A stretch of DNA of 64,000 nucleotides. Source: Clostridia bacterium (GTDB lineage: Bacteria; Bacillota; Clostridia; Peptostreptococcales; Anaerovoracaceae). Both the position numbers and the translations under genes were made by a program. Position 1 is the first letter of the stretch, and each line of letters begins with the position of its first letter. Positions 19,218-38,642 of the stretch are shown piece after piece. The stretch lies in assembly GCA_030537495.1 (NCBI GenBank), contig JAUNMH010000004.1, positions 28,509 to 92,508 of the forward strand. The letters run 5' to 3'. Below the pieces are notes generated by a model. The model saw only the letters and a program-made list of their open reading frames with translations. It was not told the origin of the DNA and made no database searches.

Positions 19218-19233
19218 AGCAATTTATATGCCA
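19218..19233 (-). promoter_or_regulatory. sigma54 promoter for the serine hydrolase-opp1 operon
   Basis: TGGCAT-ATAAA-TTGCT. Confidence 0.85.
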
Positions 19234-19354
19234 TTTCCTAATATTCTTGATTAAACTGTGTAATTTAGCGGTGTACTTAATTCACTGTAATAACATCGTA
19301 TTTTCAAAATACATATTTTATGGCACATTCAATCCTATTAAACCCTATTAAAAT

Positions 19355-20365
19355 CTATTTCTTTCTTTTGTGCTTTAACATGATAAACCCTCCGATTAAT
19401 AGGATTAAAATTCCTATTCCTGCCACTATTGGCGCAACCTTCATTTTAGGTTCGAATCCATCTGTAAGTTTTAAAAGGTTTATGGTATCTATAAAATCAC
19501 CCTGAGCCCAACGACCATTTACCTTTATATCATCTCCACTCATTACAACCGAATAGTAGACATATCCGTCTTTTTCCATGCAACACGCGTAACAATAACC
19601 AGATGCCGGAATCCAACCTGTTTTGACTCCTACAATGTATTTGGAATACGGACTTTCATATACCTTATCCTGTGGGCACATAGGAGCCAAATAAGTTTTA
19701 TAAGGTGTAGGTTCAGACCTTTTATTAGAAACTGGTAGGACTCCTCCTTCACTTTTTACAATTTCTCTAAATTTATCGTTCTTCATGGCCTCACGACACA
19801 TTTTTACCATATCTGCAGGAGTAGTAACATTACTTGATGAAAGGCCACTGCTATCGTAAAAATGTGTATTTTCGCACCCAAGTTTTTCTGCCTTCTCATT
19901 CATTTTCTTAATAAAATCCCCATAGTCGTCGTACATACTAAAAGCAAATGCAGTAGTGGCTTCGTTAGCAGAATACACCAGCATAAACTTCATGCATTCA
20001 TAAGCAGATATTTTTTCACCCGCCTCCAGATGCTTATTTATATCCATCCAAGAACAGTAATAATCCTTTACTGCCCTTGGGTCAACTGTAATTTCTCCCT
20101 TTAATGCCGGGTTATCATCTAAGACAACAAGGGCTGTCATAACCTTTGTCATACTTGCTGGTGCAAGCTTCATATCCTTGTTCTTGTCGTAAATCACCGT
20201 ATCGCTAGTATCTTCATACAAAATTGCAGCCTTGCAATTTGGCGCTTGATCCTGCGTTTCCTCATTACCATATGCCTTCATTGATGTGAAGGTAAAGGTA
20301 AAGGAAAGAATAATTGCCAAAGACAAAGCAGCGACACCAATTTTCTTCATGATTGCATTATTCAT
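19355..20365 (-). CDS. D-alanyl-D-alanine carboxypeptidase (S11, DacA-like) with signal peptide and C-terminal TM anchor
   Basis: PASMTK, SAN and KTG motifs. Hydrophobic C-terminus followed by KHKRKK. Confidence 0.92.
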   Translation of the reverse strand: MNNAIMKKIGVAALSLAIILSFTFTFTSMKAYGNEETQDQAPNCKAAILYEDTSDTVIYDKNKDMKLAPASMTKVMTALVVLDDNPALKGEITVDPRAVKDYYCSWMDINKHLEAGEKISAYECMKFMLVYSANEATTAFAFSMYDDYGDFIKKMNEKAEKLGCENTHFYDSSGLSSSNVTTPADMVKMCREAMKNDKFREIVKSEGGVLPVSNKRSEPTPYKTYLAPMCPQDKVYESPYSKYIVGVKTGWIPASGYCYACCMEKDGYVYYSVVMSGDDIKVNGRWAQGDFIDTINLLKLTDGFEPKMKVAPIVAGIGILILLIGGFIMLKHKRKK

Positions 20366-20425
20366 AAGTAATTATCTCCTCTTCTCACGTCATTGCCATT
20401 GATTACAATTATGTGATTACAATTA

Positions 20426-20441
20426 CGCAAGCTTTATGCCA
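20426..20441 (-). promoter_or_regulatory. sigma54 promoter for dacA-like gene
   Basis: TGGCAT-AAAGC-TTGCG. Confidence 0.8.
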
Positions 20442-20459
20442 TTTCCTCTATAAAAACTA

Positions 20460-20475
20460 TGGCACAGAACTTGCA
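20460..20475 (+). promoter_or_regulatory. sigma54 promoter for the racemase
   Basis: TGGCAC-AGAAC-TTGCA, a perfect consensus match. Confidence 0.9.
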
Positions 20476-20540
20476 ATTTTATAATAGGTAATATAATTTG
20501 TATTAGGAAAATAAAACGACAAAGGAGAGCAGATAAGACA

Positions 20541-21239
20541 ATGGATAAACTAATCGGAGTACTAGGAGGCATGGGTTCCATGGCATCCCAGCTGTTTTAC
20601 AAAATGGTAATAGAAAGAACAGAGGCACAGTGCGACCAAGAACATGTGAGGCTTTTAATTTTAAACGATGCTTCCATGCCTGACAGAACTGGCGCCATAC
20701 TTGCAGAAAATTACGATGCAGTTGATAGCAAAATGCTAGAAGATTTCAAGCTCCTCGAAAATGCTGGTTGCAAGGCCATTGCAATTACATGCAATACGGC
20801 TCATTTCTTCGCAGACAGATTACAGGATAAAATAGGAATTCCAATTATCCATATGATAGAAGAAACATCTGAGGAAATTGCAAGGAAATATCCAGGCGGT
20901 AAAATTGCGGTTCTTGCTACAGACGGCACTATTCAAACAGGTTTATATCAGAAAAGGCTGGAAAAATACAGTTTAATCCCATTTATTCCTAATAAGGAAA
21001 TGCAGAAATCAGTTATGCATCAAATTTACGATTGCATTAAGAAAGGATTGCCTTGGGACGAAGATTCATGGATGAAATTACAAACATATATCAAGGAAAA
21101 TGGCTGTGATTGCGCCATTATGGCATGTACTGAGCTTTCTGTTATAAAAGAAGACAACCATCTGGGAGATTACTATATTGACCCTATGGATGTGCTGGCA
21201 AGAAAAGTTATTGAATTCTCCGGGAAAAAATTGAAATAA
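20541..21239 (+). CDS. Aspartate/glutamate racemase family (RacX/YgeA-like)
   Basis: IGVLGGMG, TCNTAH and ACTELS two-cysteine motifs. Confidence 0.92.
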   Translation: MDKLIGVLGGMGSMASQLFYKMVIERTEAQCDQEHVRLLILNDASMPDRTGAILAENYDAVDSKMLEDFKLLENAGCKAIAITCNTAHFFADRLQDKIGIPIIHMIEETSEEIARKYPGGKIAVLATDGTIQTGLYQKRLEKYSLIPFIPNKEMQKSVMHQIYDCIKKGLPWDEDSWMKLQTYIKENGCDCAIMACTELSVIKEDNHLGDYYIDPMDVLARKVIEFSGKKLK

Positions 21240-21336
21240 ACTTATTTAATCCTATTATCTTGTGTTATAATCGCAATATACAGCACATATTCTGTGGCTG
21301 AGAATAATCTCAAGATAAATTAAGGAGCTGACTATA

Positions 21337-23301
21337 ATGAAAAAAGTAATCCTATTTTTTAAAGACTCATATAACCCAGAGGCTATTTCCTATGTGCAAA
21401 ACAATATTGATGAGGTTTTTGCAGGATACGTTGAAACAACTGTATATTATGTCATGGATCTAGATGAGAAAACGGTTCTGGAAGCAGATGCCTTTCTAGT
21501 TGCTCAAAGTGTGGAAATGCAAAGCATTAAAGACCATGTTTCAGATTTTTCCAAGGTAATTAGGCTTACAAGAAGTCCGAACAAAGATGTTCTCAATAAG
21601 CTGTCTTACATTCCTTCGGGATCTACAGTCCTCGTAGTAAACGATAGCTACAATTCATCTTTAGAAACAACTCAGGCCTTTTACGAAGTTGGCATAGGTC
21701 ATGTAAACATGGTGCCTTTCGACGGAAGCCTCGTTAACACTGGACTTTACGATAATATACAAATTGCAATCACACCGTCTGAACCACATCTCGTACCCAA
21801 GCATATCGAAACTATTATAGACATAGGCTATAGAAAAGTCAGCTTTGAGACCATGTTTAGACTCATGAAGATTCTCAAGCTAGACGTACCTGCAGTAAAT
21901 AAAAATCTATTCAATCATGTTTATTCAGTAATTGAGCCTAATGCAGAGTTCAATTCAAACTACATAAACGGTTATCTGCAGAATGAAATGATTAATAGGG
22001 TAATAGATACGGTAAAATTAGGAATTGTTTTGGTGAGCAAATACTATGAAGTTATATTTGTCAATGATATCGCCCTTAACATTTTTCAAAAAAAGGAAAA
22101 GGAGGACATCAATCTTGCAAGATATATCCCTGCAGATACCTTGGCGTCTAAGGATGTTAATAATGACAACATTGAAATCAACGGAGATTGGTATCACTAC
22201 GATAAATATGATCTCACTTTGCTCAATGAGACTGCAGGTTACTACATTACCCTACAAAATCTTACTGATTTTAGCGCTACTGACAAGCAACGCCGAGAGA
22301 AGGGCTTCATTGCTAAGCATAGTTTCAAGGATATCGTGCATAAGTCAAAGGCCATGGATGATGTAATAGAAAGGGCCCGTCAGATTGCTCTTACAGATCA
22401 TACAGTGCTTATCAGAGGGGAAAGCGGAACAGGTAAAGAATTGATTGCTCAATCTATTCATAACGCATCATACCGAAGCCAATTTCCTTTTGTAGCAATT
22501 AACTGTGCCGCCCTACCTGAAACACTTCTAGAAAGTGAACTTTTTGGTTATGAAAAAGGGGCATTCACGGGAGCTCAGTCAAAAGGCAAAATAGGACTTT
22601 TCGAAGAAGCCAATCACGGAACAATCTTTCTCGATGAAATCGGAGATATATCGCCCGGACTTCAATCCAGGCTTCTCCGTACAATTCAGGAACGGCAAAT
22701 AATGAGAGTCGGCAGTGACAGAATAATAGACATAGACATTCGCTTAATTACCGCAACAAATAAAGATTTAGAGGAAGCAATTCAAAATGGAGAATTTCGT
22801 GCAGACCTATTTTTCAGACTTAACGTGCTACCCATAGAAGTACCTCCACTTAGAAAAAGAAAAGACGATCTGCATGATTTATTCAGTTTCTTCTTAGGAC
22901 GCGGAGTTGGTGCATTTACCGATGAAGAGAGAAGATGCCTATTAGAATATGATTGGCCAGGAAATGTCCGAGAAGTTGAAAATGCTGCCATATATTATAA
23001 AACTCTTTCTCAACTGCCATCGAATATTATTAGCAAACAATTTGATGGCAGTTACAGCAAGAATTCGGTTAACCTAGAAAAAGCCATTTTACAGATTATT
23101 GATACAAATACATCTATGTCACATGGCATTGGAAGAACATCACTTCTTCAGCAACTTAAGCAAAGGGGTGTTGTCATCAGCGATGTTAAGCTTCGTAGCA
23201 TACTAGGTGCCATGGAAACAGACGGTCATATAAAGATAGGTAAAGGTCGTTACGGCACTAGGATAACTGATAAAGGAATCGACAGAATTAAAGAATTGTG
23301 A
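21337..23301 (+). CDS. sigma54-dependent enhancer-binding protein (N-terminal sensor, PAS-like, AAA+, C-terminal winged helix)
   Basis: GESGTGKE, ESELFGYEKGAFTGA, FLDEIGD, FRADLFFRL and WPGNVRE. Confidence 0.95.
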   Translation: MKKVILFFKDSYNPEAISYVQNNIDEVFAGYVETTVYYVMDLDEKTVLEADAFLVAQSVEMQSIKDHVSDFSKVIRLTRSPNKDVLNKLSYIPSGSTVLVVNDSYNSSLETTQAFYEVGIGHVNMVPFDGSLVNTGLYDNIQIAITPSEPHLVPKHIETIIDIGYRKVSFETMFRLMKILKLDVPAVNKNLFNHVYSVIEPNAEFNSNYINGYLQNEMINRVIDTVKLGIVLVSKYYEVIFVNDIALNIFQKKEKEDINLARYIPADTLASKDVNNDNIEINGDWYHYDKYDLTLLNETAGYYITLQNLTDFSATDKQRREKGFIAKHSFKDIVHKSKAMDDVIERARQIALTDHTVLIRGESGTGKELIAQSIHNASYRSQFPFVAINCAALPETLLESELFGYEKGAFTGAQSKGKIGLFEEANHGTIFLDEIGDISPGLQSRLLRTIQERQIMRVGSDRIIDIDIRLITATNKDLEEAIQNGEFRADLFFRLNVLPIEVPPLRKRKDDLHDLFSFFLGRGVGAFTDEERRCLLEYDWPGNVREVENAAIYYKTLSQLPSNIISKQFDGSYSKNSVNLEKAILQIIDTNTSMSHGIGRTSLLQQLKQRGVVISDVKLRSILGAMETDGHIKIGKGRYGTRITDKGIDRIKEL

Positions 23302-23312
23302 GGTTATGCAAA

Positions 23313-24227
23313 ATGATTTACCCAAAAAAAATTAAGGCCGGAGCTGTAATAGGGCTCGTAAGTCCCAGCTCCTCAATTTCTAATGAAAGGCTGGATGCCT
23401 GCGTCAAAGCATTAAAAAACATGGGTTTTACCGTTAAACTTTCCGATAATATCTGCGCAGATAAAGGTGGCTACATGGCAGGGGATGAACAAATCCGCGC
23501 GAAATGGATTAATAAAATGTTTGCTGATCCAGAAGTCGATGCCATATTTTGTGTCAGAGGTGGCGATGGTGGAAACAGAGTTGCTCCCTTAATTGATTTA
23601 AATATTGTTCGTAAAAATCCAAAGATTTTCGTAGGATACAGTGACATTACCAGCTTCCATCTGTTGTTTAACCAAGAGTGCGATTTAATCACTTTCCACG
23701 GTCCAATGGTATCTTCAAACCTGGTGGACCATTACGACAGAGAAACCAAATTGAGTCTCTTCTCCTGCTTAAATGCGGAAGAAAAGTACACCTACGTCGC
23801 ACCTGACGGTTTTGATATCAAAATCGTCAGAGAAGGTTATGGCATGGGACCGTTGGTAGGCGGCAACCTAACCCTTATCAGTACATCCATAGGAACACCT
23901 TACCAAATTGATACCAAAGGAAAAATTCTTTTTATGGAAGAACTGGATTCTCATATTGGAAACATTGACAGATGCATATATCAATTAAAAAATGCAGGTT
24001 TATTAGACGAGATTAAAGGGGTTTTGATCGGACAATTTACTAATTGTAGAAACGATAGGGCATATTATGATGTTAATCGCGTTGTTGCAGACGCTCTTGA
24101 AGGCAGAAACATCCCAGTTATGAGTAATATTCAGTCTGGCCATGGCTTTCCAATGATTACTCTACCAATGGGAGCACTGTGTGAAATGGATACAGCGACC
24201 TCCTCGCTAGTCTTTTACACTAGATAA
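23313..24227 (+). CDS. LD-carboxypeptidase, S66 family (LdcA/YkfA-like)
   Basis: RGGDG, VGYSDITS, FHGPM, GGNL, LFMEE and GHG motifs. Confidence 0.92.
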   Translation: MIYPKKIKAGAVIGLVSPSSSISNERLDACVKALKNMGFTVKLSDNICADKGGYMAGDEQIRAKWINKMFADPEVDAIFCVRGGDGGNRVAPLIDLNIVRKNPKIFVGYSDITSFHLLFNQECDLITFHGPMVSSNLVDHYDRETKLSLFSCLNAEEKYTYVAPDGFDIKIVREGYGMGPLVGGNLTLISTSIGTPYQIDTKGKILFMEELDSHIGNIDRCIYQLKNAGLLDEIKGVLIGQFTNCRNDRAYYDVNRVVADALEGRNIPVMSNIQSGHGFPMITLPMGALCEMDTATSSLVFYTR

Positions 24228-24242
24228 AACTTTAATTTCTCA

Positions 24243-24289
24243 ATGCAAAATGCAGGCTGATCTTTACCTGGTCAACCTGCATTTTGCAT
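24243..24289. terminator. Bidirectional terminator, 14-bp perfect stem
   Basis: ATGCAAAATGCAGG / CCTGCATTTTGCAT between convergent genes. Confidence 0.85.
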
Positions 24290-24323
24290 GTAAAAGATTT
24301 ATGAAAGGTATTATACTACTGGA

Positions 24324-25358
24324 TTATAGAATCTCCGATAGCGCATACACTTTTTTTCCTCTGATTCCTGTTACAGTGTGAGCATGATCAAGTGAGCTGT
24401 ACACAGACTCTTCCACTGCCTCAGCCGTTGCCTGGAAGATCTTATCTATAGCTCTGTCATTTATCATTTTCATATCTACCATAGACGTATCGCCATAGTG
24501 TGGAACTCTGTTGGCTGTCGAAAAAGCAATAGCTATATCACCACTTCCATTTCCTAAATAGGACCCAGTTCTTGCAAGGGCTACAGTCGCTCTCTTAGCA
24601 ACTCTGCGAAGCTGCCTCTCACTAAGAGGAACATCAGTTGCGATTAGAATAATAACAGAACCTTTTTCAACGTCGCCGTCCTTCTTTTCAGTAATTTCCT
24701 TAACATTTATAAGTTTGCCATCAATTCTCAGGCACTCTGGAAATCCAAAATTAGAAAGAACCATAGCCCCTACTGTATAGTCTTTATCATCTATTTGAAA
24801 AACTCTTGAAGCGGAGCCGATTCCGCCTTTAAGGCCCATGCAAATCATGCCCGTACCTGCTCCAACATCTCCCTCTTCAAAGATTTCAGACGCGTTTTCT
24901 AAGGCCTTAAAAACATGTTCTTCTTCAATATGCTGTCCTCGAATATCATTTAGATCGCCGTCATTACACTCTGTTACCACACAGTTTACAGTACCAGTGC
25001 TTACTCCAATATCCTCGTTGTCCTTCAGCATGTACTTTGTCAAAGCATTTAAAGCTGTTCCCACGCTTAATGTATTAGTCATAATAATCGGTGTTTCAAT
25101 AGTGCCAAGCTCGTCTATCTGCACGAGCCCTGCTGATTTTCCAAAGCCATTAATAACCGACGTAGCAGCCATTACCTTGTCCTTAAAAATATTTCCTTCA
25201 TGAGGAATTATTGCTGTTACTCCTGTATGAATGTCTCTGGCATCATCTTTAATTGTAAAATGTCCTACTTTCACGCCTTCAACATCAGTAATTAGATTGT
25301 TTTTCCCAGGTTTGTAGACAGATGTCATTTTAACCTTACTTTCCAAAGATATACCCAT
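24324..25358 (-). CDS. dmpA: DmpA-family L-aminopeptidase/D-amidase/beta-peptidyl aminopeptidase (P1/S58)
   Basis: ITDVEGVKVGH, NGFGKSAG, ECNDG, VGAGTGM and autoproteolytic GNG/SGD site. GGAGGA RBS. Confidence 0.92.
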   Translation of the reverse strand: MGISLESKVKMTSVYKPGKNNLITDVEGVKVGHFTIKDDARDIHTGVTAIIPHEGNIFKDKVMAATSVINGFGKSAGLVQIDELGTIETPIIMTNTLSVGTALNALTKYMLKDNEDIGVSTGTVNCVVTECNDGDLNDIRGQHIEEEHVFKALENASEIFEEGDVGAGTGMICMGLKGGIGSASRVFQIDDKDYTVGAMVLSNFGFPECLRIDGKLINVKEITEKKDGDVEKGSVIILIATDVPLSERQLRRVAKRATVALARTGSYLGNGSGDIAIAFSTANRVPHYGDTSMVDMKMINDRAIDKIFQATAEAVEESVYSSLDHAHTVTGIRGKKVYALSEIL

Positions 25359-25420
25359 TGTCGCTCCTCCATGTTCGTTTCTTATCAAAGCTTAATTGTC
25401 TCGTTTTATACAAATATTAA

Positions 25421-25599: not shown

Positions 25600-26976
25600 A
25601 TGAGCATTAACAACACCTTTGAATATCTTTCCATTGGCTTGCCTGAGGATATTCAAAGACGAAAGATTTACGGTGATTTCGAGGGGGCGCTAAGGCTTAT
25701 AGATTTACGTCTTGCGCGAGAAAGCACTACCTACCCTCTTCGCCAATGCCTTACAGTACAAAGGGAAATCATAAAGAGACTTCCTGACAACTATCCGTAC
25801 ACAAAAGCTGAGGCCCTTGATATTATCAAGGGTAGGATTCCAGATTTCACTATGGATGAACTTGATAACTTCATTGACACCAATCAAGTGGGATGGATAT
25901 ATGTTAATGGAGAAATGCACATTTTCTCAGGTTTCTTCGCAACATTATGCAAGACAAACCACGATTTCGCAAAGAGAGCGCAGATGAATCTTTCAGGTTC
26001 AGAAAGTGATTTAAGCGAGCCGGAATATGCGGTAAAAATGAGAAAAGGGCTTAAGGAAAAGGGTAAATTTTCCAACAGAATTCGCATGAAGGCTTGGATT
26101 CAGCTTAAAGATGAGAATTTCACACCGGGAATGCAGGTAAAGGTACACCTTCCAATTCCAGCAGATTGCCATGAGCAAAGCGACATCGTCATTGAAGAAA
26201 TGTATCCAGAAAACGGATCAGTTGCTCCATCTGATGCACCTCAACGTACAGTTTGCTGGCAGGAAACCATGGAAGAGAACCACATTTTCTCAGTGGAATA
26301 TTCCTATACATATACCGCTTCCATGCACCATACGACAGGTTTAGCTGCGGATGCAGTCCAGCCAGGTTTTGATACCGAAGAGAAGGCGCCTCACATCGCC
26401 TTTACACCGTATATCAAAGCTCTCGCGGACTCACTCACTGAAGGTGTTTCTGACCCTATGGAAAAAGCCAGAATTTTCTACGACTTCATAACCCTGAACA
26501 TGAGATACACTTTCATGCCGGACTACTTCGTATTAGACAGCATCGCGGAAATGTGTGCAAGAAATTACACCGGCGACTGTGGCGTCTTCGCACTGCTCTT
26601 CATTACACTTTGCAGATGCAGCGGAATTCCTGCACGTTGGCAGAGTGGACTAGTTGCGGAGCCAGGTTTTGTTGGAGCTCATGACTGGGCAAGATTCTAT
26701 GTGGAGCCATACGGCTGGTTTTTTGCGGATCCTTCCTACGGTGTTTCTGCTGCTAGATCTGGCGACGAAGAAAGAAGAAAATTCTACTTTGGAAACATCG
26801 ATTCCTTTAGAATGATTGCTAACAGCGAGTTTCAGGCTCCTTTTACTATTGACAAGGATTTCTGGAGAGACGACCCTTATGACAATCAATATGGGGAATT
26901 TGAGTCCTCCGAGAGGGGCTTCAGAGGCTGTGACTTAAACCATGACTGTGAAATGATAAAATATGAGGTGATTTAA
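25600..26976 (+). CDS. Transglutaminase-like cysteine hydrolase, cytoplasmic
   Basis: GDCGVFALLFITLCRCSGIPAR (Cys), HDWA (His) and FADPSYG (Asp). No signal peptide. Confidence 0.88.
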   Translation: MSINNTFEYLSIGLPEDIQRRKIYGDFEGALRLIDLRLARESTTYPLRQCLTVQREIIKRLPDNYPYTKAEALDIIKGRIPDFTMDELDNFIDTNQVGWIYVNGEMHIFSGFFATLCKTNHDFAKRAQMNLSGSESDLSEPEYAVKMRKGLKEKGKFSNRIRMKAWIQLKDENFTPGMQVKVHLPIPADCHEQSDIVIEEMYPENGSVAPSDAPQRTVCWQETMEENHIFSVEYSYTYTASMHHTTGLAADAVQPGFDTEEKAPHIAFTPYIKALADSLTEGVSDPMEKARIFYDFITLNMRYTFMPDYFVLDSIAEMCARNYTGDCGVFALLFITLCRCSGIPARWQSGLVAEPGFVGAHDWARFYVEPYGWFFADPSYGVSAARSGDEERRKFYFGNIDSFRMIANSEFQAPFTIDKDFWRDDPYDNQYGEFESSERGFRGCDLNHDCEMIKYEVI

Positions 26977-27939
26977 ATGAAAAAAATTATTGACTTACAT
27001 TGTGATACTATAACTGCTTGCGATTCAGAAGACAAACTTTTCGAAAACCCAATTTTCAACGATGAATGCGTTATGGACTATAACAAAGTTCCTGGTGACT
27101 GTCGCTGGGCTCAATGCCACGCTATTTTTATGCCTGACGAATTCCGTGGAGAATCTGCTGTCAAGTTCTACGATGAAATAGTTAAACGTTACAAGAACCA
27201 AATGGAAGATTTCTCCGACAAAGTGTCTCAGTGCAGAAGTGCTTCAGACATTGAAAAAGCTTGGGATGAAGGCAAATATGCATCTATTCTTACTGTTGAA
27301 GGCGGCAGTGCTTTAGCTGGAGACGCAGACAGAGTTAAAATTCTTGCTGATGACGGAGTTAAGATGATGACTCTAGTATGGAACGGTGACAATGAAATTG
27401 CTTCAGGTCATAATACTGACAAGGGCTTCTCTGAATTCGGAAGAAAAGTTGTTCCTCTACTTGAAGAAAATGGAATCATTGTAGACGTTTCTCATCTTAA
27501 CGATATCGGCTTCAATGAACTTCTTGAAATTGTGAAGAAACCATTTGTTGCTACTCACTCCAATGCTCGTGCTATCTGCTCACATAAGAGAAATCTTACA
27601 GATGATATGATTCGCGAAATGGTTAAAAGAGATTGCTTAATCGGCCTAAATTATTACACTGCTTTTATCAGTGACTATGAGAAAGACGGTGTAGACTCTA
27701 ACTGTGATTATGCAGATATGTTCTACAGACACATTGCCCATTTCTTTGAACTAGGGGCAGAAAAGAATCTAGCACTAGGTTCCGATTTTGACGGTGCTAC
27801 TCTGCCAGAATGTTTAAGTTCTCCGGCAAAAGTTGTTGAAATGTATGATTATCTTCTTGAAAAAGGTCTATCCGAAGAACAGCTTGACGGTATCTTCTAC
27901 AAAAATGCTCTAAGATTTTTACACGAAAATATTAAATAA
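26977..27939 (+). CDS. Membrane dipeptidase family M19 (renal dipeptidase-like)
   Basis: DLHCD, TVEGG, DVSHL, ATHSN and GSDFDG motifs. Confidence 0.92.
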   Translation: MKKIIDLHCDTITACDSEDKLFENPIFNDECVMDYNKVPGDCRWAQCHAIFMPDEFRGESAVKFYDEIVKRYKNQMEDFSDKVSQCRSASDIEKAWDEGKYASILTVEGGSALAGDADRVKILADDGVKMMTLVWNGDNEIASGHNTDKGFSEFGRKVVPLLEENGIIVDVSHLNDIGFNELLEIVKKPFVATHSNARAICSHKRNLTDDMIREMVKRDCLIGLNYYTAFISDYEKDGVDSNCDYADMFYRHIAHFFELGAEKNLALGSDFDGATLPECLSSPAKVVEMYDYLLEKGLSEEQLDGIFYKNALRFLHENIK

Positions 27940-27981
27940 TCGCATTTAATAGGATTTAGAAATTTAAATTTCACGGTATTG

Positions 27982-28024
27982 AAAAATGGTTGTACTCAGC
28001 TAAGTGCTAGGTACAACCATTTTT
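27982..28024. terminator. Bidirectional terminator
   Basis: AAAAATGGTTGTAC / GTACAACCATTTTT. Confidence 0.85.
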
Positions 28025-28092
28025 TCGCTTTTTTTATTTTATATGCTCAGCATTCTTAATATACAAGTCGACCTGTAAACTACGTGAACGAC

Positions 28093-28964: not shown

Positions 28965-29106
28965 AATACTTTAATTAAGTATAACATATAGCTGTAATTA
29001 TTTGCTAGGTGATTTCTCACATGATTTACCATAATTAGTTTTCTTGCTATTAATCAAAAACTGTGCTAAACTGAACGTGTATAAGCATTATTGGAGGTGT
29101 GGTTGT

Positions 29107-29535
29107 ATGAGAACCTTAGATGAAACAGATTATAAATTATTAGAACTTCTTAGAGAAAATGCAAGAACTCCGCTCAAGGAGTTGTCAGCAGCAGTTTTTC
29201 TCTCTACTCCGGCCGTTTCTGCAAGAATAGAAAAGTTAGAAAACGATGGATTTATTACCGGTTATCACGCAACTACAGATTATGAGAAGCTTGGAAACGG
29301 AATCAAAGCTTTTATTATGATTACGGTTCGCCCTGAAGACAAAGAGGAATTCATTGACTTCATAGGCAACCAAGAATGCGTTATAGAATGCAATCATATT
29401 ACTGGTAATTACTCTATGATAGTAAAGACTATGTTTCCTTCTACAACGCCTTTAAATCAGTTTGTTGGTGAACTTCAGAGATTTGGAAAAACACAGACGC
29501 AAGTTGTTTTTGAAACAGTTATAGAACGCTATTAA
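29107..29535 (+). CDS. Lrp/AsnC-family regulator
   Basis: LDETDYKLLELLRENARTP...VSARIEKLE and ITGNYS motifs. Confidence 0.93.
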   Translation: MRTLDETDYKLLELLRENARTPLKELSAAVFLSTPAVSARIEKLENDGFITGYHATTDYEKLGNGIKAFIMITVRPEDKEEFIDFIGNQECVIECNHITGNYSMIVKTMFPSTTPLNQFVGELQRFGKTQTQVVFETVIERY

Positions 29536-29550
29536 CTACATTGATTACTA

Positions 29551-29673: not shown

Positions 29674-31083
29674 ATGAGTAAACAAAATGTATCTTGCATT
29701 GAACGTGTAATGTCAAAGAGCACCGGCCTAAATCGTACAATGAAGATGAAGGCTGCCGTTATGACAGGAATAGGCGGTACAATTGGTACCGGACTGTTTC
29801 TGAGCTCAGGAGACGTGCTTGCAACAGCAGGCCCTATTGGAGCAATTGTACTTTACATTATCGGTGGATTTATCGCATGGACTATGACATGCTGTTTGGG
29901 AGAGCTATCTGCTGCAATGCCAGTTGCTGGTTCACTCCAGGCTTATGCTACTGAGTTTTGTGGTCCAGCCCTAGGCTTCACTATTGGATGGGTTAACTGG
30001 GTAGGTGGAGCTGCAACCATTTCAGCTCAGGTTGTTGCCAGTGCAATCATTATGCGCGATATTATTCCAAATTCACCAACATGGATATGGATTGTTCTCT
30101 TTGCTGTCCTATTATTTGGCGTAAATCTTTTGGATGCTAAACTATTCGGAAACATTTCTTTTTGGGTATCAACTATTAAGGTTCTAATGGTTGCTGCGTT
30201 TTTCGTAGTTGGCGGTGCAATGGTATTTGGAGGTTTTGGTAGTGAGGGTGCTGCAATTACTCATGAAAGCGTAGGAACTGGCGGTATCAGCTTTGCTACA
30301 ATGTGCGCCTGCGTTCTTACTGCATTCTATGCATATGCCGGAACTGAAATCGTTGCTGCAACAGCCGGCGAACTTGAAGATGAAAAGAAAATGGGTAAAG
30401 CTATTAACCTGACAATTGCAATCCTTATTGCAGTAGTAGTTTTGTCAATTACAATCGTATGCTTGTTATTACCTGCAGACCAGGCTAATGTCCTTGGCTC
30501 ACCATTTGTATACGTATTCAGAAATGCAGGAATGAACGGTGCAGCTTTGGTTGTAAACCTTGTAGTTTTGTCATCTGCCCTGACATCAGGTAACTATTTC
30601 GTATATGGATGTTCAAGATATCTTTGGTCATTGGCCAAGTTTGACCAGGCACCTAAAATTTTCGCGAAGACAAGTAAAAATGGCGTTCCTGTAAACGCTT
30701 TAATCGTATCTATGTTGTTTGGAATGCTTGCAATTATTGCAGAATTTGTTGCGGAAGATTCTGTTTATCTATTCATCGTATACTTCATAGGCGGTGGTAA
30801 CATCTTTATGTATTCTGTAATCTGTATTTCACAGTACAGATTCAGAAAACGCTATCTAGCCGAAGGCGGAGATGTAAAAGACCTTCCATACAAGACTCCA
30901 CTATTCCCACTAGTGCCTATTTTAGGAGTTATATCATTCCTTGCAATGCTCGTTGCAACTCTGACAGATCCCGGTGAAGTAAAGGGAATCATCGTATGTG
31001 CAGTTATGTATTCAGCTATCTACATTGGAGCTAGGTTCTATGTTAAGAAAACCGGTGGAGAGGCTATCAATATTGACCTATAA
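29674..31083 (+). CDS. APC-family amino acid permease (RocE/LysP-like)
   Basis: GGTIGTGLFLSSG, GELSAAMPVAGS, GTEIVA and KNGVPV motifs. Confidence 0.92.
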   Translation: MSKQNVSCIERVMSKSTGLNRTMKMKAAVMTGIGGTIGTGLFLSSGDVLATAGPIGAIVLYIIGGFIAWTMTCCLGELSAAMPVAGSLQAYATEFCGPALGFTIGWVNWVGGAATISAQVVASAIIMRDIIPNSPTWIWIVLFAVLLFGVNLLDAKLFGNISFWVSTIKVLMVAAFFVVGGAMVFGGFGSEGAAITHESVGTGGISFATMCACVLTAFYAYAGTEIVAATAGELEDEKKMGKAINLTIAILIAVVVLSITIVCLLLPADQANVLGSPFVYVFRNAGMNGAALVVNLVVLSSALTSGNYFVYGCSRYLWSLAKFDQAPKIFAKTSKNGVPVNALIVSMLFGMLAIIAEFVAEDSVYLFIVYFIGGGNIFMYSVICISQYRFRKRYLAEGGDVKDLPYKTPLFPLVPILGVISFLAMLVATLTDPGEVKGIIVCAVMYSAIYIGARFYVKKTGGEAINIDL

Positions 31084-31137: not shown

Positions 31138-32778
31138 GTGCCAAATATGATTGATAAGAACAGAATGTATGAAAATCTCAAGCGTCTTGTTTCTGTGCCA
31201 AGCATTTCAGGTACTCCAGACGAGGAAGCTGGAGCAGAAAAGATTCAAGAATTACTTATGGAAATACCATATTTTCAGAAGCATCCGGATCAGGTAATGC
31301 TCTTACCTATTGAGGGCGACCCTTTTGATAGGAAGTTGATTACCGCATTCCTAGAAGCTCCGGAGAAGACAAAAGATACGGTTATTCTGACAGGTCACTA
31401 TGACGTTGTTGATGTGGAGGAATTCGGCTCACTTAAAGATATTGCCTTTAATGTTGATGAGATAACGGATAGAATTAAAGAACTCCCTCTAAGTGATGAA
31501 GTTTTAAATGACTACATGAGTGGGAATTATCTCTTCGGTAGAGGTGTTCTTGATATGAAGTATGGCCATGTTGCCAGTCTCGAGCTACTACATCATTACT
31601 CTGAGACTCAATCACTTAAGGGTAATCTTCTCTATGTAGGTGTCTGCGGCGAAGAGACTAACTCAGAAGGAATGCTTGCAGCGGTTAAGTTCTTTAATAG
31701 TTTCAGAAAAGAGAAAAATTTAAACTATCGGCTGATGCTTTTGATGGAAGGTTATCTTGTTGATGGACAGGAAGCTGGAGTACGCTATATCCAGTATGGC
31801 AATGCAGGTAAAATTATGCCCATGTTCTTCTGTATTGGTAAGACAACCCATGGTGAAGAACCACTTCTTGGTCTGGATGCCAATTCACTTTCGTCAGAAG
31901 TATATAGGTTAATGCACACTAACCCTCTCTTCTGCCAGAACAATCACGGTATTACTACATCACCGCCATGTGGATTGAAACTGCAGGATATGAAAGAGAA
32001 TTATTCCCTTTCAACTACACTCTACGCTGCCTCTTATTACAATATTGCAACAATCAAACTTGATCCGGAGGACCTAATGAATAAGCTTAAGGGTATTGCC
32101 AATGAAGCCTTTGATAATGTAATAGAAATAATTAAGAAGAACGTAGATGGATTTACAAAGCTTGCAGGAAGAGTTCCAGATTATTATATGCCCGAACCTG
32201 AGGTGCAAACATTTGCGGAGTTTTACGAAGACATCGAAAATGATTTCGACGGTGATTTAGCAACAGTCGTAAAAGAAAAACTAGCTGAATTTATGAGTGT
32301 AAATCCAGAAATGCAAGATTCATGCGTTCAACTCGTAAAATATTTAGCAGGAATTTCTAAGGACAAAACTCCTAGAATAATAATTTCTATTATTCCTCCT
32401 TACTATCCAGATGTGAATCTCAATATGGAGGATCCTGATACGGTTAAAATGATGGAAAATATGCAGGATATTATTAAGTACGCTGCTGACAATTACGGTG
32501 AAACTCTTAAGACAAGTGAATACTATGGCATCTCTGATATGAGCTACACCTGGCTTGCTGATGGACTCGACTTTGATGCCCTCTTTGAAAATCTCATTGG
32601 TGTCGGTTCTATCTACCAGTTCCCCGGTGAGGATCTCAAGGAATTCAAGGTTCCAGGTATGGTTTTAGGATGTGCTGGAAAAGATATGCATAAGTATACA
32701 GAACGCCTTGAAAAGCACTATAATTTTGATGTTTTACCTAATCTTTATATCAGAGCAATCGAAAACATCATCGGTTAA
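31138..32778 (+). CDS. RocB-like M20/M25/M40 hydrolase
   Basis: TGHYDVV, GRGVLDMKYG, GEETNSEG and GKDMHKYTER motifs; ~545 aa. Confidence 0.82.
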   Translation: MPNMIDKNRMYENLKRLVSVPSISGTPDEEAGAEKIQELLMEIPYFQKHPDQVMLLPIEGDPFDRKLITAFLEAPEKTKDTVILTGHYDVVDVEEFGSLKDIAFNVDEITDRIKELPLSDEVLNDYMSGNYLFGRGVLDMKYGHVASLELLHHYSETQSLKGNLLYVGVCGEETNSEGMLAAVKFFNSFRKEKNLNYRLMLLMEGYLVDGQEAGVRYIQYGNAGKIMPMFFCIGKTTHGEEPLLGLDANSLSSEVYRLMHTNPLFCQNNHGITTSPPCGLKLQDMKENYSLSTTLYAASYYNIATIKLDPEDLMNKLKGIANEAFDNVIEIIKKNVDGFTKLAGRVPDYYMPEPEVQTFAEFYEDIENDFDGDLATVVKEKLAEFMSVNPEMQDSCVQLVKYLAGISKDKTPRIIISIIPPYYPDVNLNMEDPDTVKMMENMQDIIKYAADNYGETLKTSEYYGISDMSYTWLADGLDFDALFENLIGVGSIYQFPGEDLKEFKVPGMVLGCAGKDMHKYTERLEKHYNFDVLPNLYIRAIENIIG

Positions 32779-32820
32779 ACTCTCGTAATTTCAAGTTCCA
32801 CATATATTAAATCCTCATAA

Positions 32821-32855
32821 ATATACCTCTTGGATTATTATTCCAAGAGGTATAT
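32821..32855. terminator. Bidirectional terminator
   Basis: ATATACCTCTTGGA / TCCAAGAGGTATAT. Confidence 0.85.
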
Positions 32856-32860
32856 TATTT

Positions 32861-33841: not shown

Positions 33842-34826
33842 TTTCCATTACCTCCTTATCATACAAGAAGCATCTAACCTTGTGGCCTTCCTCTGTTTCA
33901 TAAAGTTCTGGCTGATACTCTGTACATATTTTCATAGCCTTGTCACATCTAGTGCAAAAACGGCATCCTTTTGGAAGGTGCAGAAGATTTGGTACCATTC
34001 CCCTTATGGTAAATAGATGCTCCTTAGTTTCAGTCATTTTAGGTATGGAGTTCATAAGTCCAAAAGTATAAGGGTGCTGTGGATTTTTGAATAGGGCCTT
34101 AACGGACGCTTCTTCCATTATTTTTCCAGCATACATAACGTAAACATAATCGCATGATTGTGCTACAACACCCAAATTATGCGTAATCATTACAATTGCC
34201 GTGTTTTTTTCTTTCTGCAGTTGATTCATCAAGTACAAAATCTGTGCTTCTATAGTTACATCTAAGGCAGTTGTAGGTTCGTCCGCAATTATAAGTTCCG
34301 GATTACAAACCATAGCCATTCCAATCATAACTCTCTGTCGAAGTCCTCCAGACAGCTGATGTGGGTATGCTCCATATCTTTTTTCAGGCTCCGGTATACC
34401 TACCTTCCTGAAAATATCTATAGCTCTCTCCTTTGCTTCTTCCTTGGATACATTTTCGTGTGTCAAGATTGCTTCTGAAACCTGCTTGCCAATTGTATAA
34501 ACCGGGTTTAATGACGTCATCGGCTCTTGGAATATCATAGATATTCTGTTGCCTCTAATCTCATCAATCTCCTTCATGGATTTATCAAGAAGATTCTCAC
34601 CGTCTAGGAGAATTTCACCATCAACGACCTTACCAGGTTTCTGCAAAAGCTGCATAACCGACATTGCGGTCATGCTTTTCCCGCTTCCCGATTCACCTAC
34701 AAGACCTACCGCCTCTCCTTGTTTTACTGTAATGTCTATACCATCTACTGCAGGCACGATACCTTTCTTTGTGAAGAACTGGGTTTTCAGTCCTCTTATC
34801 TGAAATATTGTCTTTTTATCGCTCAT
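33831..34826 (-). CDS. oppD: Oligopeptide ABC ATPase (OppD), system 2
   Basis: [20 protein letters not shown] and ADEPTTALD. Confidence 0.94.
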
Positions 34827-34838
34827 ATTTTCACCACC

Positions 34839-35849
34839 CTAATCCTTAAGTTGTGGGTCAAGCTTATCTCTAAGCGCATCGCCCAAGAAATTGAATGCAA
34901 CTACAAGAATAAGAATTGCTATACCAGGAGCAAGAGTTGCAACTGGTGATTTAGACAAGTACTTCTTCATTTGGAATACGAGCAGACCCCAACTTGTTGA
35001 AGGAGGTTGTGCACCTATTCCTAAGAAGGAAAGTCCAGATTCTGTAAGGATGTTTCCAGGCACATTCATAGTGAACAAAACTATCAGCGTCGGTACACAA
35101 TTGGGTAATATATGTTTGAGCAAAATCACCCAGGTTTTTACACCAATGGAATTTGCAGCTTCTACGTACTCCTTTTCTTTTAGTGACAAAACTTCTGATC
35201 TAACAACTCTGGCGGTTCCACCCCAGGAAACAAAACTTAGCGCACAAAATATAGTTAGCATTCCTGCACCTAGTGTGTAGGATATAAGTATAGCCAATAG
35301 CATTGAAGGGAATGCCATAAATACATCTGCAACTCTCATTATTATGCTGTCTACTATGCCACCACAGTATCCGGCAATTAATCCTAAGATGGTACCAATC
35401 GCCATATATATACAGGTAGGCACAATTCCAACCAATAAGGAAACTCTTCCACCATACATCATACGGCTCAGTATATCTCGGCCGTAATTATCAGTTCCCA
35501 GAAGATGATGAATAGATGGCGCTGCCAGTCTATTCCCAAGATCCTGCACATAAGGATCACAAGGTGCAAATAGTGGAGCAAACAACGTTCCAATAATAAA
35601 TACTACTATTACTATAGCTGATACTAGAGCAACTTTATTATTCTTAAACATGCTAGCTAGCTGATCTTTTATCGTCTCACTTGGTGCTATCAATGCTTCA
35701 GATGCTTCTTCTATCCTTATAGGTTCCGTAGCACGTTTGGGAATCCAGTCTGTACCCTTAGGTCTGTCCTGTGCTGGAGAAAAACCAGCGACTATTCTGT
35801 CGGCAAGAATATCTACCGCTTCATTTCTTTTCTTATTATTAAATAGCAT
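34839..35849 (-). CDS. oppC: Oligopeptide ABC permease (OppC), system 2, with long N-terminal extension
   Basis: GTDNYGRDILSR, EYVEAANSIG and LSFLGIG motifs. GGAGG RBS before ATG 35849. Confidence 0.92.
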   Translation of the reverse strand: MLFNNKKRNEAVDILADRIVAGFSPAQDRPKGTDWIPKRATEPIRIEEASEALIAPSETIKDQLASMFKNNKVALVSAIVIVVFIIGTLFAPLFAPCDPYVQDLGNRLAAPSIHHLLGTDNYGRDILSRMMYGGRVSLLVGIVPTCIYMAIGTILGLIAGYCGGIVDSIIMRVADVFMAFPSMLLAILISYTLGAGMLTIFCALSFVSWGGTARVVRSEVLSLKEKEYVEAANSIGVKTWVILLKHILPNCVPTLIVLFTMNVPGNILTESGLSFLGIGAQPPSTSWGLLVFQMKKYLSKSPVATLAPGIAILILVVAFNFLGDALRDKLDPQLKD

Positions 35850-35862
35850 CTTTACCTCCAAT

Positions 35863-36783
35863 CTACTGTTCTTTAATCTTTGGATCTAGAACAGAATATA
35901 GTAAATCTGCAACCATATTTCCAAGGATAATAATCATAGTAGAAAATATTACAGATCCCTGAAGTAATGGCATATCTCTAGCGTTAATCGCTGAAACCAT
36001 TAAAACTCCGATTCCTCCAATACCAAATACAGTCTCTGTAAGAACTGCACCTGATAACAAGCTTGCAAACTGCATCGCCATCATTGTAACAACCGGAATC
36101 ATTGCATTTTTCAGTCCATGTTTGACCACAACCAAAGTCTCACCAATACCCTTAGCTCTAGCGGTTCTAATATAATCATTCTTCATTATGCCTAACAGGC
36201 TAGAGCGTGTCAGTCTTGCAATTGTACCTGACGATGCCCATCCTAGCACAAATGCCGGCAATATCATATGCTTAGCCGTTGCATATCCTGAAATTGGAAG
36301 AATTCCTAATGAGTATCCAAAAATATACTGTAATAACATTGCTGCCCAGAATACTGGAAGTGAAATTCCTACAAGAGAGAATCCCATTAAAAATCTATCC
36401 AATAAAGTGTCTTTTTTAATAGCAGATACTATTCCTGCAGGTATTCCAATAATCCACGCAACTATCGCTGAAGTGATAGCCAGCTTCAGTGTATTTGGAA
36501 ATGCATCTGCAATAAGTCCAGCTATTGGACGATTTAGTTTATATGAGCTGCCTAAATCTCCATGCACAAGATTAACCAGGTAATCAAAAAAACGTTTTGG
36601 CAAAGGATCATTTAATCCCATTTCCTCTGTAACCTTTGCTATTACCTCCGGATTTGCCTTTTCTCCCATCATAACAGCAATAGGATTTCCTGGTACTACC
36701 TGAAGTAGTAGAAATACAATCAATATAGTTACTATAATCAGCGGAATAGAAACAAGAATACGTTTTATAATATATTTTGCCAT
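35863..36783 (-). CDS. oppB: Oligopeptide ABC permease (OppB), system 2
   Basis: VPGNP, HGDLGSS, YIRTARAKG and GAVLTETVF motifs. Confidence 0.94.
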   Translation of the reverse strand: MAKYIIKRILVSIPLIIVTILIVFLLLQVVPGNPIAVMMGEKANPEVIAKVTEEMGLNDPLPKRFFDYLVNLVHGDLGSSYKLNRPIAGLIADAFPNTLKLAITSAIVAWIIGIPAGIVSAIKKDTLLDRFLMGFSLVGISLPVFWAAMLLQYIFGYSLGILPISGYATAKHMILPAFVLGWASSGTIARLTRSSLLGIMKNDYIRTARAKGIGETLVVVKHGLKNAMIPVVTMMAMQFASLLSGAVLTETVFGIGGIGVLMVSAINARDMPLLQGSVIFSTMIIILGNMVADLLYSVLDPKIKEQ

Positions 36784-36818
36784 TTCTATTCTCCTTTCAA
36801 TGTTTCATATTTTTAAAA

Positions 36819-36852
36819 AATGGGAATACCCGAAACCGTAGATATTCCCATT
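36819..36852 (-). terminator. Intercistronic hairpin after oppA2 (partial terminator or mRNA stabiliser)
   Basis: AATGGGAATA / TATTCCCATT, followed by a T run on the minus strand. Confidence 0.65.
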
Positions 36853-36881
36853 AGTATAATCCTTTCGACTATATTTTTGAA

Positions 36882-38540
36882 TTATTCGGCAGTTTCCAGC
36901 TCAACTGAGTAGTATGAGCAGTCGCCCCAACCTGCCCACTGAGGAACAAAGTTTTTAACTCTATCCTGGACAAGTCTTATCTTTTCTGCGTGCCACAGTG
37001 GTACAAATGCAGCATCATCATCTATTATTTTTTCTTCAAGATCCAGGTATTCTTTCATACGAGCATCATTATCTGTCATATGTCTTGCAGCTTCTACTCT
37101 CTTGATAACATCCTTATCCTTATAGTTTACTGACCTTTCTTTTGTTGTTGCTGTCGCAAAATATGTATACAAGAAGTTATCTGGGTCATTGAAATCTGCC
37201 CACCATGATTCAATGTGAGATGCCAATTCCCCATTGCCTCTGATATCATAATAAGATGCCTCGTCAACCTGTTCAATTTCTACTTCTACGCCAATTTCCT
37301 TCAGCTGTTCCTGAATAACTTCCAAGCACTCGCTCTTTTCAGTTGCCTTCTTTGCCAATTTCAGTTTAAATCCGTTTTCATATCCAGCTTCTTTCAGTAA
37401 CTGCTTTGCACCCTCAGGATCATACTCAATATCTGGAAGATTCTTATTGTAGCAGATTAATGTAGGAGGGAATATACCCTTAGCTAGTGTACCTGTACCT
37501 TCATATAATGAATCTATTATTGCCTGACGGTCGATACCCTTCTGTAGAGCTTTACGTACTTTTACATTGTCTAAAGGTTTAACGTTTTCATTTAAAACTA
37601 AGTAGTCTCCACCCATTATTACTGTAGAAACTATGTTATCACTCCACTGATCATCATCCTGATATGTTGGGATTAAGCTCTTCGCCTTGTCAATTTCAAA
37701 GATATCAGTCTGTCCAGATTCAAATAACATCTTTTCAGTATCTGTATCAGTAGCAACCTTAATCAAAATGCCGTCAATTTTAGGAGCACCCTGCCAGTAA
37801 TCCTTATTTGCTTCCAGATAAATGTGGTCATTTAGTACCCACTCTTTAACAATAAAAGGACCTGAACCAATAGTGTACTCTGGTTCTGAACCAAATAATG
37901 TAGTTTTCTTACCCTTACCTGCTTTATCTCCTGCATCACAAGCTTCTCTATTAAGAATAGACCATGCAGGTACACTTAAAGTTGATAAGAAAGGTGCATA
38001 TGATTCACTAAGAACTATATCAAAGTTATAATCATCGTGAATAATAATACCTTTTCCTTCTACGGTTTTCGTTTTTCCATCAAGAACATCCTTTGCGCCC
38101 TTTATCATATCCATCCAATAATAATTCATAGTCGCACGTTCAGGATCCAACATACTATCTACAGTATAGAGTACGTCGTCTGATGTCATTGGCTCACCGT
38201 TTGTAAATTTAATATCTTTTCTTAGATGCATAGAATAAGTCAATCCATCCTTAGAAACTTCCCACTTTTCTGCAGCGCAAGGTTGCAATTCGGTAGTTCC
38301 GTCATCTTTAGATACTGTCTGAACTAGCGTATCAAAACAGTTCATTGGAATAATGTAATCCGAAGTTGTCTGTCTAACGTCACCAGACTGACATTCATGG
38401 TCATAAGTAACACGAAGGACATTTTCAGCAAATCCATCGTCGTACTCAACTTTTGTTTGCTTGTCGCCGCCACAACCTGCAAGACCTCCTGCAACTAGTG
38501 TCAAACTAAGCAACACAGCACTCAATTTTTTAGCCTTCAT
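36882..38540 (-). CDS. oppA: Peptide ABC substrate-binding lipoprotein (family 5), system 2
   Basis: Lipobox LAGCGG. IGSGPF, KVRKALQKGIDR and WWADFNDPDNFL motifs. Confidence 0.94.
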   Translation of the reverse strand: MKAKKLSAVLLSLTLVAGGLAGCGGDKQTKVEYDDGFAENVLRVTYDHECQSGDVRQTTSDYIIPMNCFDTLVQTVSKDDGTTELQPCAAEKWEVSKDGLTYSMHLRKDIKFTNGEPMTSDDVLYTVDSMLDPERATMNYYWMDMIKGAKDVLDGKTKTVEGKGIIIHDDYNFDIVLSESYAPFLSTLSVPAWSILNREACDAGDKAGKGKKTTLFGSEPEYTIGSGPFIVKEWVLNDHIYLEANKDYWQGAPKIDGILIKVATDTDTEKMLFESGQTDIFEIDKAKSLIPTYQDDDQWSDNIVSTVIMGGDYLVLNENVKPLDNVKVRKALQKGIDRQAIIDSLYEGTGTLAKGIFPPTLICYNKNLPDIEYDPEGAKQLLKEAGYENGFKLKLAKKATEKSECLEVIQEQLKEIGVEVEIEQVDEASYYDIRGNGELASHIESWWADFNDPDNFLYTYFATATTKERSVNYKDKDVIKRVEAARHMTDNDARMKEYLDLEEKIIDDDAAFVPLWHAEKIRLVQDRVKNFVPQWAGWGDCSYYSVELETAE

Positions 38541-38626
38541 ATCAGAGCCTCCTTTGCTTTATCTCCTAAAAGATATTCTCATAAGATAGTGTCATCCTAT
38601 TTAATGACAACTTTGTAGCTATAACT

Positions 38627-38642
38627 AGCACAAAATGTGCCA
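38627..38642 (-). promoter_or_regulatory. sigma54 promoter for the opp2 operon
   Basis: TGGCAC-ATTTT-GTGCT, one mismatch at -12. Confidence 0.7.

Follow-up and report, generated by a model that had tools for sequence, protein, structure and literature searches.

Eight sigma-54 promoters around a single activator gene in a Clostridia bacterium: a candidate regulon for D-amino-acid peptides

The window analysed here is a stretch of 64,000 nucleotides from the genome of a Clostridia bacterium of the Anaerovoracaceae (assembly GCA_030537495.1, contig JAUNMH010000004.1), a small gut anaerobe and amino-acid fermenter (1.92 Mb, 41.5% GC, 99.9% complete). Between 12.4 and 38.6 kb of the window, about twenty genes lie behind eight -24/-12 elements of the sigma-54 type, P1 to P8, together with one gene for a sigma-54 activator. 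Sequence comparisons support the conclusion that the eight elements are genuine, selectively maintained sigma-54 promoters. We favour, at a probability of about 0.6, the view that the stretch is a sigma-54 catabolic regulon for D-amino-acid peptides, in which the local activator opens all eight promoters, P2-P7 from afar or from solution.

Eight -24/-12 promoters in one stretch

In the window, GGCA-N7-TGC is found 17 times; shuffled sequences gave 6.8 +/- 2.9 matches. Eight occurrences, at 19219(-), 20427(-), 20461(+), 25422(-), 25500(+), 28950(-), 29593(+) and 38628(-), are intergenic, where 0.23 were expected (Poisson P about 2e-10; by a simple gene map, 6.1 kb, or 9.6%, of the window is intergenic), and the other nine are all intragenic, at about chance level. 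An earlier note on this DNA had reported eight sigma-54 elements at these places and none in the other intergenic regions of the window. All eight were recovered, with an offset of at most 1 nt, and because the nine further matches lie within genes, the second statement is correct as well. The elements were also said to be correctly oriented, shortly upstream of start codons; this holds for all of them, the GC of the -12 box being 43, 62, 67, 64, 87, 63, 68 and 88 nt from the start codon for P1 to P8, respectively. In the case of P4, the 64 nt lead to the ATG at 25358, and an upstream TTG is 34 nt away; the P4 and P6 genes actually start at the ATGs 25358 and 28887, each of which has a ribosome-binding site.

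The strict form TGGCA-N6-TTGC fits six of the eight promoters, the exceptions being P6 (AGGCAC) and P8 (which ends in GTGC), while the spacing of exactly 10 nt from GG to GC within TGGCAC-N5-TTGC is found in all eight. The clostridial consensus TTGGCATNNNNNTTGCT (Nie et al. 2019, PMC6615313) specifies 12 positions, of which the eight promoters match 9-12. The promoters are as follows:

P1: 19219-19233, minus strand, TGGCATATAAATTGC; heads the S12 gene and ABC transporter 1 (19176 down to 12386)
P2: 20427-20441, minus strand, TGGCATAAAGCTTGC; heads the secreted S11 gene (20365-19355); no proximal upstream activator site
P3: 20460-20474, plus strand, TGGCACAGAACTTGC; back to back with P2; heads the racemase gene (20541-21239)
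P4: 25422-25436, minus strand, TGGCATAGTATTTGC; heads the S58 gene (25358-24324); no proximal upstream activator site
P5: 25499-25513, plus strand, TGGCAAGATTTTTGC; divergent from P4; heads the genes for a transglutaminase-like protein (25600-26976) and an M19 peptidase (26977-27939)
P6: 28950-28964, minus strand, AGGCACTATTTTTGC; heads the M55 D-aminopeptidase gene (28887-28093)
P7: 29592-29606, plus strand, TGGCATAAATCTTGC; follows the AsnC terminator; heads the permease (29674-31083) and M20 (31138-32778) genes
P8: 38628-38642, minus strand, TGGCACATTTTGTGC; heads ABC transporter 2 (38540 down to 32861)

Thus, eight of the nine transcription units in the stretch have such a promoter, which agrees with the claim that nearly every unit does; the AsnC/Lrp gene (29044-29535) has none. 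The genome encodes RpoN (PF04552 at C31:5657-6133, 220 bits, in an open frame of 456 aa). A promoter matrix trained on foreign promoters only gave 32 matches genome-wide, about 22 of them credible, and eight of these fall in the stretch. Every other functional activator gene in the genome adjoins one or two sigma-54 promoters, and the local density is therefore as unusual as the earlier note had held.

Two of the intergenic regions hold pairs of promoters. The -24 boxes of P2 and P3 are 19 bp apart, and those of P4 and P5 are 63 bp apart. In the two closest species, G004 and G024, the boxes of the back-to-back S11/racemase pair (20427-20474 in the window) are separated by 8 bp (L093 1152-1189) and 10 bp (18680-18719), respectively. 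Since the footprints of two holoenzymes should overlap at 8-19 bp, the promoters of such a pair may be mutually exclusive, or else may need a special geometry.

Conservation in related species

Relatives within the same genus were gathered with the N-terminal 333 aa of the activator as the query; searches with the whole activator were swamped by AAA+ cores of unrelated phyla, and L001 and L030 alone matched over the full length. G004 (85% complete) and G024 (98% complete) have activators 73-75% identical to the one in the window, and proteins 67-88% identical to those of the window. In both, the same promoters precede the same genes, and in alignments of the P1-P6 regions the -24/-12 boxes are the sole conserved intergenic blocks. 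As the boxes of P2-P6 are intact in three species amid intergenic DNA that has diverged beyond alignment, they are evidently under purifying selection, and something must therefore open these five promoters.

About 20 further loci of the genus, with shuffled gene order, have TGGCA-N6-TTGC in front of the S12-ABC, racemase, S58-M55, S66, S11 and second ABC genes, and the S12 orthologues have an upstream sigma-54 promoter in all loci examined. A locus with an activator labelled Emergencia timonensis has the same gene families behind promoters of this kind. The layout in the lineage of the window is the most fragmented one; in relatives further removed, these genes are combined in longer operons, one to four in number. 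S58 orthologues without a sigma-54 promoter are found in G013, G015 and G018, genomes that have no close homologue of the activator.

These results bear on the simplest alternative, that the elements are chance matches or sigma-70 promoters and that no sigma-54 regulon exists. In its favour, the pattern is a short one, and sigma-70-like hexamers are frequent in AT-rich intergenic DNA, but the intergenic excess, the uniformly correct orientation and the conservation across species, together with the promoters' co-occurrence with an upstream site, with rpoN and with a gene for an activator, leave this explanation almost no room.

The activator and its putative site

The activator gene, with the gene that follows it, is located as follows:

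21337-23301, plus strand: sigma-54 activator (enhancer-binding protein), 654 aa, the sole PF00158 gene in the window
23298-24227, plus strand: LD-carboxypeptidase (S66), whose start overlaps the activator stop by 4 nt

The window thus encodes one enhancer-binding protein, as had been stated. It is composed of an alpha/beta region (residues 1-200), a PAS domain (about 229-308), an AAA+ domain (333-501) and a winged helix (584-650). The AAA+ domain matches PF00158 at 3e-70, contains the Walker A motif GESGTGKE and the GAFTGA motif, and has a fold that matches the structures of FleQ, ZraR, NtrC1 and PspF. The PAS domain is clear in the structure of the N-terminal half. Residues 1-200 have no Pfam match and weak structural neighbours of the periplasmic-binding-protein or LacI-like type (TM about 0.3), and for this reason no ligand can be named. 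The C-terminus gave no match to the helix-turn-helix of the Fis type (HTH; PF02954, HTH_8), and residues 584-650 weakly match the winged-helix family HTH_12 (21-26 bits); 19 of 24 homologues are HTH_12-like in this part. None of the NCBIfam equivalogs reached its cut-off, the best being NifA (315, cut-off 529) and PrdR (303, cut-off 795), both through the AAA+ core only. The protein would define a previously uncharacterised winged-helix subfamily of one-component activators. Emergencia, Ihubacter and Fimisoma-like gut anaerobes commonly have homologues, and in a Holophagaceae genome a 34% identical homologue is likewise found ahead of a sigma-54 promoter and an ABC operon for peptides.

A putative upstream activator site (UAS) was derived from nine genomes, by word enrichment over 35 promoter regions. 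It is a direct repeat, AAATAGGAT-n-AAATrrGAT, of two or three units with a 10-bp period, always co-oriented with the promoter, and placed about 70-150 bp upstream, its nearest unit 70-140 bp from the GG. The site is present at 16-17 of the 35 promoters, including P1 and P8, while P2-P7 do not have it. With the site matrix, three of the four best matches in the whole genome fall in the window, at P8, at P1 and at an orphan position; a strong match at C15:14709, within the coding region of a dltA-like gene, was judged to be due to chance. The following sites were found in the window:

19330-19363, minus strand: UAS of P1, with three units in phase, TTTTAATAGGGTTTAATAGGATTG and a further one; position kept in G004 and G024
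38768-38791, minus strand: UAS of P8, AGAAAATAGGAGTTAATGGGATTT; the best genome-wide matrix match
21237-21260, minus strand: orphan UAS, AGATAATAGGATTAAATAAGTTTA, closely following the stop of the racemase gene, with the start of the activator gene about 80 bp further on; position kept in G004 (1943) and G024 (19473)
20964-20997, minus strand (also 20817-20840, plus strand): weaker UAS-like array inside the racemase gene, with a G004 counterpart at 1670
27934-27957, plus strand: single unit, TTTAATAGGATTT, just after the M19 stop and before a bidirectional terminator; kept in G004 (8571) and G024 (26048)

The array inside the racemase gene may reflect coding constraint, and the unit after the M19 gene is possibly a half-site. 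The orphan UAS overlaps the sequence of this region that best resembles a sigma-70 promoter, TTGAAA-16-TATTAT at 21231-21258 on the plus strand, and this overlap suggests that the sequence is a candidate basal, autoregulated promoter of the activator gene, beside read-through from P3. Promoter and site occur together at the racemase, S58-M55 and S66 orthologues of G007, G009, G012, G014, G016, G022 and G008, and in G025 the orthologue of the second ABC operon has promoter, UAS and activator gene side by side, which, like the UAS of P8 itself, supports P8.

The genome has about ten PF00158 genes. One encodes a distant paralogue, a winged-helix activator of 698 aa at C1:428-2524 (-), about 26-27 kb before the window. 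Three or four ATCCTAT(T) units, with the same site core as that of the window's activator in the opposite orientation, precede its own sigma-54 promoter at C1:2701 (+), which heads a sodium:alanine-symporter-like gene and an amidohydrolase gene. A dead activator gene at about C15:53505-53750 (-) is a relic of this winged-helix family; an in-frame deletion has removed its AAA+ core (about residues 347-489). A three-unit UAS-like array is found at C15:53914-53947 (-), and the relic adjoins a divergent pair of sigma-54 promoters without a UAS, C15:54690 (-) and C15:54744 (+). This pair heads a membrane protein gene and an operon for two SpmA/B-like membrane proteins and an LD-carboxypeptidase. 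The dead gene shows that the lineage has been losing activators, and such loss fits either a takeover of promoters by the remaining activator or their orphaning.

Genes of the stretch

Gene families were assigned with Pfam and NCBIfam profiles. S66, S11, S12, S58, M55, M19, M20, SBP_bac_5/oligo_HPY and Asp_Glu_race are all found in this one stretch (Pfam). The earlier note had called the genes heterogeneous; they are not, as all of them encode transporters of peptides, peptidases (D-stereospecific or of the cell-wall type) or a racemase.

The P1 operon encodes a cytoplasmic S12 protein of the beta-lactamase fold, similar to D-aminopeptidases, and an ABC importer of the Opp/Dpp type whose binding protein is a lipoprotein. 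P2 heads the gene of a secreted S11 DD-carboxypeptidase/endopeptidase. The P3 unit consists of an Asp/Glu-type racemase gene, the activator gene and the overlapping S66 gene; no terminator was found between 21239 and 21337, that is, from the racemase to the activator gene, and transcription from P3 probably continues into the activator and S66 genes. The P4 product (S58) is a DmpA-type aminopeptidase, and the M19 protein of the P5 unit a dipeptidase. The P6 product (M55) is a D-aminopeptidase of the DppA type, P7 heads an amino-acid permease gene and the M20 peptidase gene, and the P8 operon encodes a second Opp/Dpp-type importer. S11 carries a signal sequence, and the binding proteins carry lipoboxes.

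From these families, we infer that the genes form one pathway for the uptake and hydrolysis of D-amino-acid peptides or peptidoglycan stem peptides; the latter are, most plausibly, the natural source. The secreted DD-peptidase would trim peptides outside the cell, and the two lipoprotein-dependent ABC transporters and the permease would import the products. In the cytoplasm, S66, the transglutaminase-like protein with M19, M20 and the D-stereospecific aminopeptidases S12, S58 and M55 would degrade them, and the racemase would convert the D-amino acids set free.

Several neighbouring features were observed. At 38909-43610 on the minus strand, the stretch is directly followed by an operon for a biotin-dependent Na+-pumping decarboxylase (carboxyltransferase, gamma, biotin carrier, beta and alpha-like genes); this operon has no sigma-54 promoter, and would fit the fermentation of glutamate released from peptides. 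The bidirectional terminator after the M19 gene is at 27985-28025; in its place, G004 (L093 8609-10246, minus strand) and G024 have a gene for a 545-aa amidohydrolase downstream of M55. The permease (29674-31083) is 94% identical to its G024 orthologue (C111), compared with 67-91% for neighbouring genes, and the G024 gene is 17 kb away. Elsewhere in the genome, C15:54744 and a further sigma-54 promoter, C35:20795 (+), head paralogous operons for two membrane proteins and an LD-carboxypeptidase; C35:20795 has one AAATGGGAT unit about 105 bp upstream.

Expression

The informative RNA data are assembled gut metatranscriptome contigs only; runs labelled 'RNA?' for organism A had even, DNA-like cover everywhere and were left unused. 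RNA contigs from four gut metatranscriptomes cover the whole P1 operon (12353-19151), with none over the next gene. Contigs over the P8 operon reach position 38576 in the leader and none extends beyond it. These ends are consistent with the P1 and P8 promoters. The units of P2-P7 were barely covered.

Control of P2-P7

The earlier note had proposed that one activator drives all eight promoters. For P1 and P8 this is supported, as both have the putative site of the activator; P2-P7 lack even a half-site between -300 and +120. The link of P2-P7 to the local activator is drawn because they are co-localised with its gene, because orthologues carry promoter and site, and because the closest genomes have no other activator of the subfamily. 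The S58 orthologues of G013, G015 and G018, which lack both a close homologue of the activator and the promoter, point the same way. Each of P2-P6 is 0.8-2.4 kb from a conserved UAS, and sigma-54 promoters are reported to be opened from solution by an activator that lacks a DNA-binding domain (PMC3844500).

If the local activator controls the whole stretch, its alpha/beta and PAS domains would perceive a signal in the cytoplasm. It would bind the AAATAGGAT repeats through its winged helix and open P1 and P8 by looping, and the same protein would open P2-P7, acting from solution or while bound at the few conserved sites, 0.8-2.4 kb distant. Read-through from P3 into the activator gene would provide positive feedback, and the UAS over the sigma-70-like promoter in front of that gene would allow autoregulation.

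A number of observations weigh against this view. Activation of P2-P7 over 0.8-2.4 kb or from solution is an assumption. No UAS unit was found on either strand between -300 and +120 of P2-P7 or of their G004 and G024 counterparts, a looser detector of unit arrays also found none at P2-P7, and a k-mer search for an alternative motif shared by the UAS-less promoters returned AT-rich words only. The divergent pairs, with 8-63 bp between their -24 boxes, have no room for an enhancer there. A stronger core does not make up for the missing site, since the UAS-less promoters are no closer to the consensus (10.2 of 12 positions, compared with 10.75 for UAS-bearing ones), and this idea was rejected. 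P7, the least supported of the eight, is not conserved: its G024 orthologue has a degenerate TTGGTA..GTGC and a sigma-70-like promoter. As evidence of start sites, the RNA contig ends are weak. Most NCBIfam scores are below equivalog cut-offs, and the substrate is assigned from family names.

The absence of a local-activator site at P2-P7 could mean that control is split, the local activator serving P1, P8 and its own gene while an activator encoded elsewhere opens P2-P7. This is the main rival reading, and we consider it rather unlikely. There are about nine other activator genes in the genome, two of them with a winged-helix-type C-terminus, and tandem activator paralogues are found in G019, G006, G021 and G023, with UAS-less promoters nearest one of the pair. 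However, in a tree the tandem paralogues are recent, lineage-specific sisters within each genome, and the notion of two ancient activator subfamilies, one per promoter class, was rejected. Moreover, some seemingly UAS-less promoters of relatives carry variant repeats that the strict site matrix misses (AATAGGTTG, AATAAGTTG and AAAACGGTT; the lineage of the window is without them). G024 and G004 (the latter 85% complete) have no second close paralogue, their winged-helix family consisting of this activator and one distant paralogue. The motifs of distant paralogues, ATCCTATT (scanned) and CCAAAAA (by eye only), are absent at P2-P7, no alternative motif is shared, and the remaining activators each adjoin a promoter of their own.

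It is more improbable still that genome reduction deprived P2-P7 of their enhancers, or of their activator, and that they are now weak or silent remnants, with the genes expressed from other promoters. The genome is small (1.9 Mb) and has a dead activator gene of the same family beside a UAS-less pair on C15, gut metatranscriptomes give little RNA depth over the P2-P7 units, and sigma-70-like matches lie nearby. But the purifying selection on the P2-P6 boxes speaks against it, and the sigma-70-like matches are near chance (78, compared with 60 +/- 7) and unconserved, except for the one in front of the activator gene. We therefore retain control of all eight promoters by the local activator as the preferred reading.

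A more specific form of that reading, which we put forward only tentatively, is a two-tier regulon, in which the transporter operons have direct-repeat enhancers and the six enhancerless promoters respond to activator that acts from solution or is bound at shared sites at distances of up to about 2.4 kb.

Comparison with known systems

In the nif cluster of Klebsiella, NifA controls seven or eight -24/-12 promoters in about 20-25 kb, each with the inverted repeat TGT-N10-ACA, which is bound by a Fis-type HTH. As there, the stretch has a sigma-54 activator gene inside the cluster and many operons tied into one pathway. It differs from nif in that the site is a direct repeat, presumably bound by a winged helix, that six of the eight promoters have no site, and that the pathway is peptide catabolism rather than nitrogen fixation.

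Murein-peptide recycling in E. coli involves MppA/Opp, LdcA, MpaA, YcjG and PepD, and the dpp/dciA operon of Bacillus subtilis includes the D-aminopeptidase DppA; these systems depend on sigma-70 or sigma-A and serve recycling or nutrient limitation. The stretch resembles them in combining Opp/Dpp-type uptake with an LD-carboxypeptidase and D-stereospecific peptidases, including an M55 homologue of DppA by a Dpp-type transporter. Unlike them, it is presumably sigma-54 dependent, and it is much larger, with three D-aminopeptidase families, a racemase and two transporters, and it is found in an amino-acid fermenter.

Clostridiales have one-component PAS activators of sigma-54, among them PrdR and the 'peptide degradation' groups XcyR and YpdR (PMC6615313). 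The activator of the window is likewise a cytoplasmic one-component PAS and AAA+ protein linked to amino-acid or peptide catabolism in anaerobic Firmicutes. In Table 1 of PMC6615313, the groups have one or two operons each, and their reconstruction relied on the Fis-type HTH (335 of 490 proteins), whereas the activator described here has a winged-helix C-terminus and reaches the PrdR model through its AAA+ core only. A text search of PMC6615313 found no regulon of D-peptidases or LD-carboxypeptidases.

Enhancer-free activation has precedents in Borrelia Rrp2 (PMC3037356) and truncated DctD (PMC3844500). Sigma-54 promoters without a nearby activator site are reported to be opened there too, by activators whose DNA-binding domain is missing or unused; the present activator has such a domain and presumably uses it at some promoters.

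Thus, nif already provides an example of a local sigma-54 regulon that is dense, comprises several operons and has its own activator, and clostridial PAS activators of amino-acid catabolism are known from PMC6615313. What differs here is the pathway, the winged-helix domain with a direct-repeat site, and the lack of a nearby site at most of the promoters.

Significance

If the favoured reading is true, sigma-54 has a role in the scavenging of D-amino-acid and cell-wall peptides; text searches of PMC6615313 and PMC12316311 for peptidase, carboxypeptidase, aminopeptidase and peptidoglycan terms found no mention of it. Such peptides are abundant in the gut, and many organisms are not known to use them. 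An activator subfamily with a winged helix and a direct-repeat site would be spread through Emergencia-like gut anaerobes; more distant relatives of the subfamily adjoin peptide transporters in Acidobacteriota. Should the two-tier arrangement hold, the sharing of enhancers, or independence from them, would be an evolved design in which transport comes first and degradation later. The enhancerless promoters, above all the compact divergent pairs, would be a natural test of the dependence of sigma-54 activation on a nearby enhancer, and the site and promoter models permit the prediction of such regulons in uncultured relatives.

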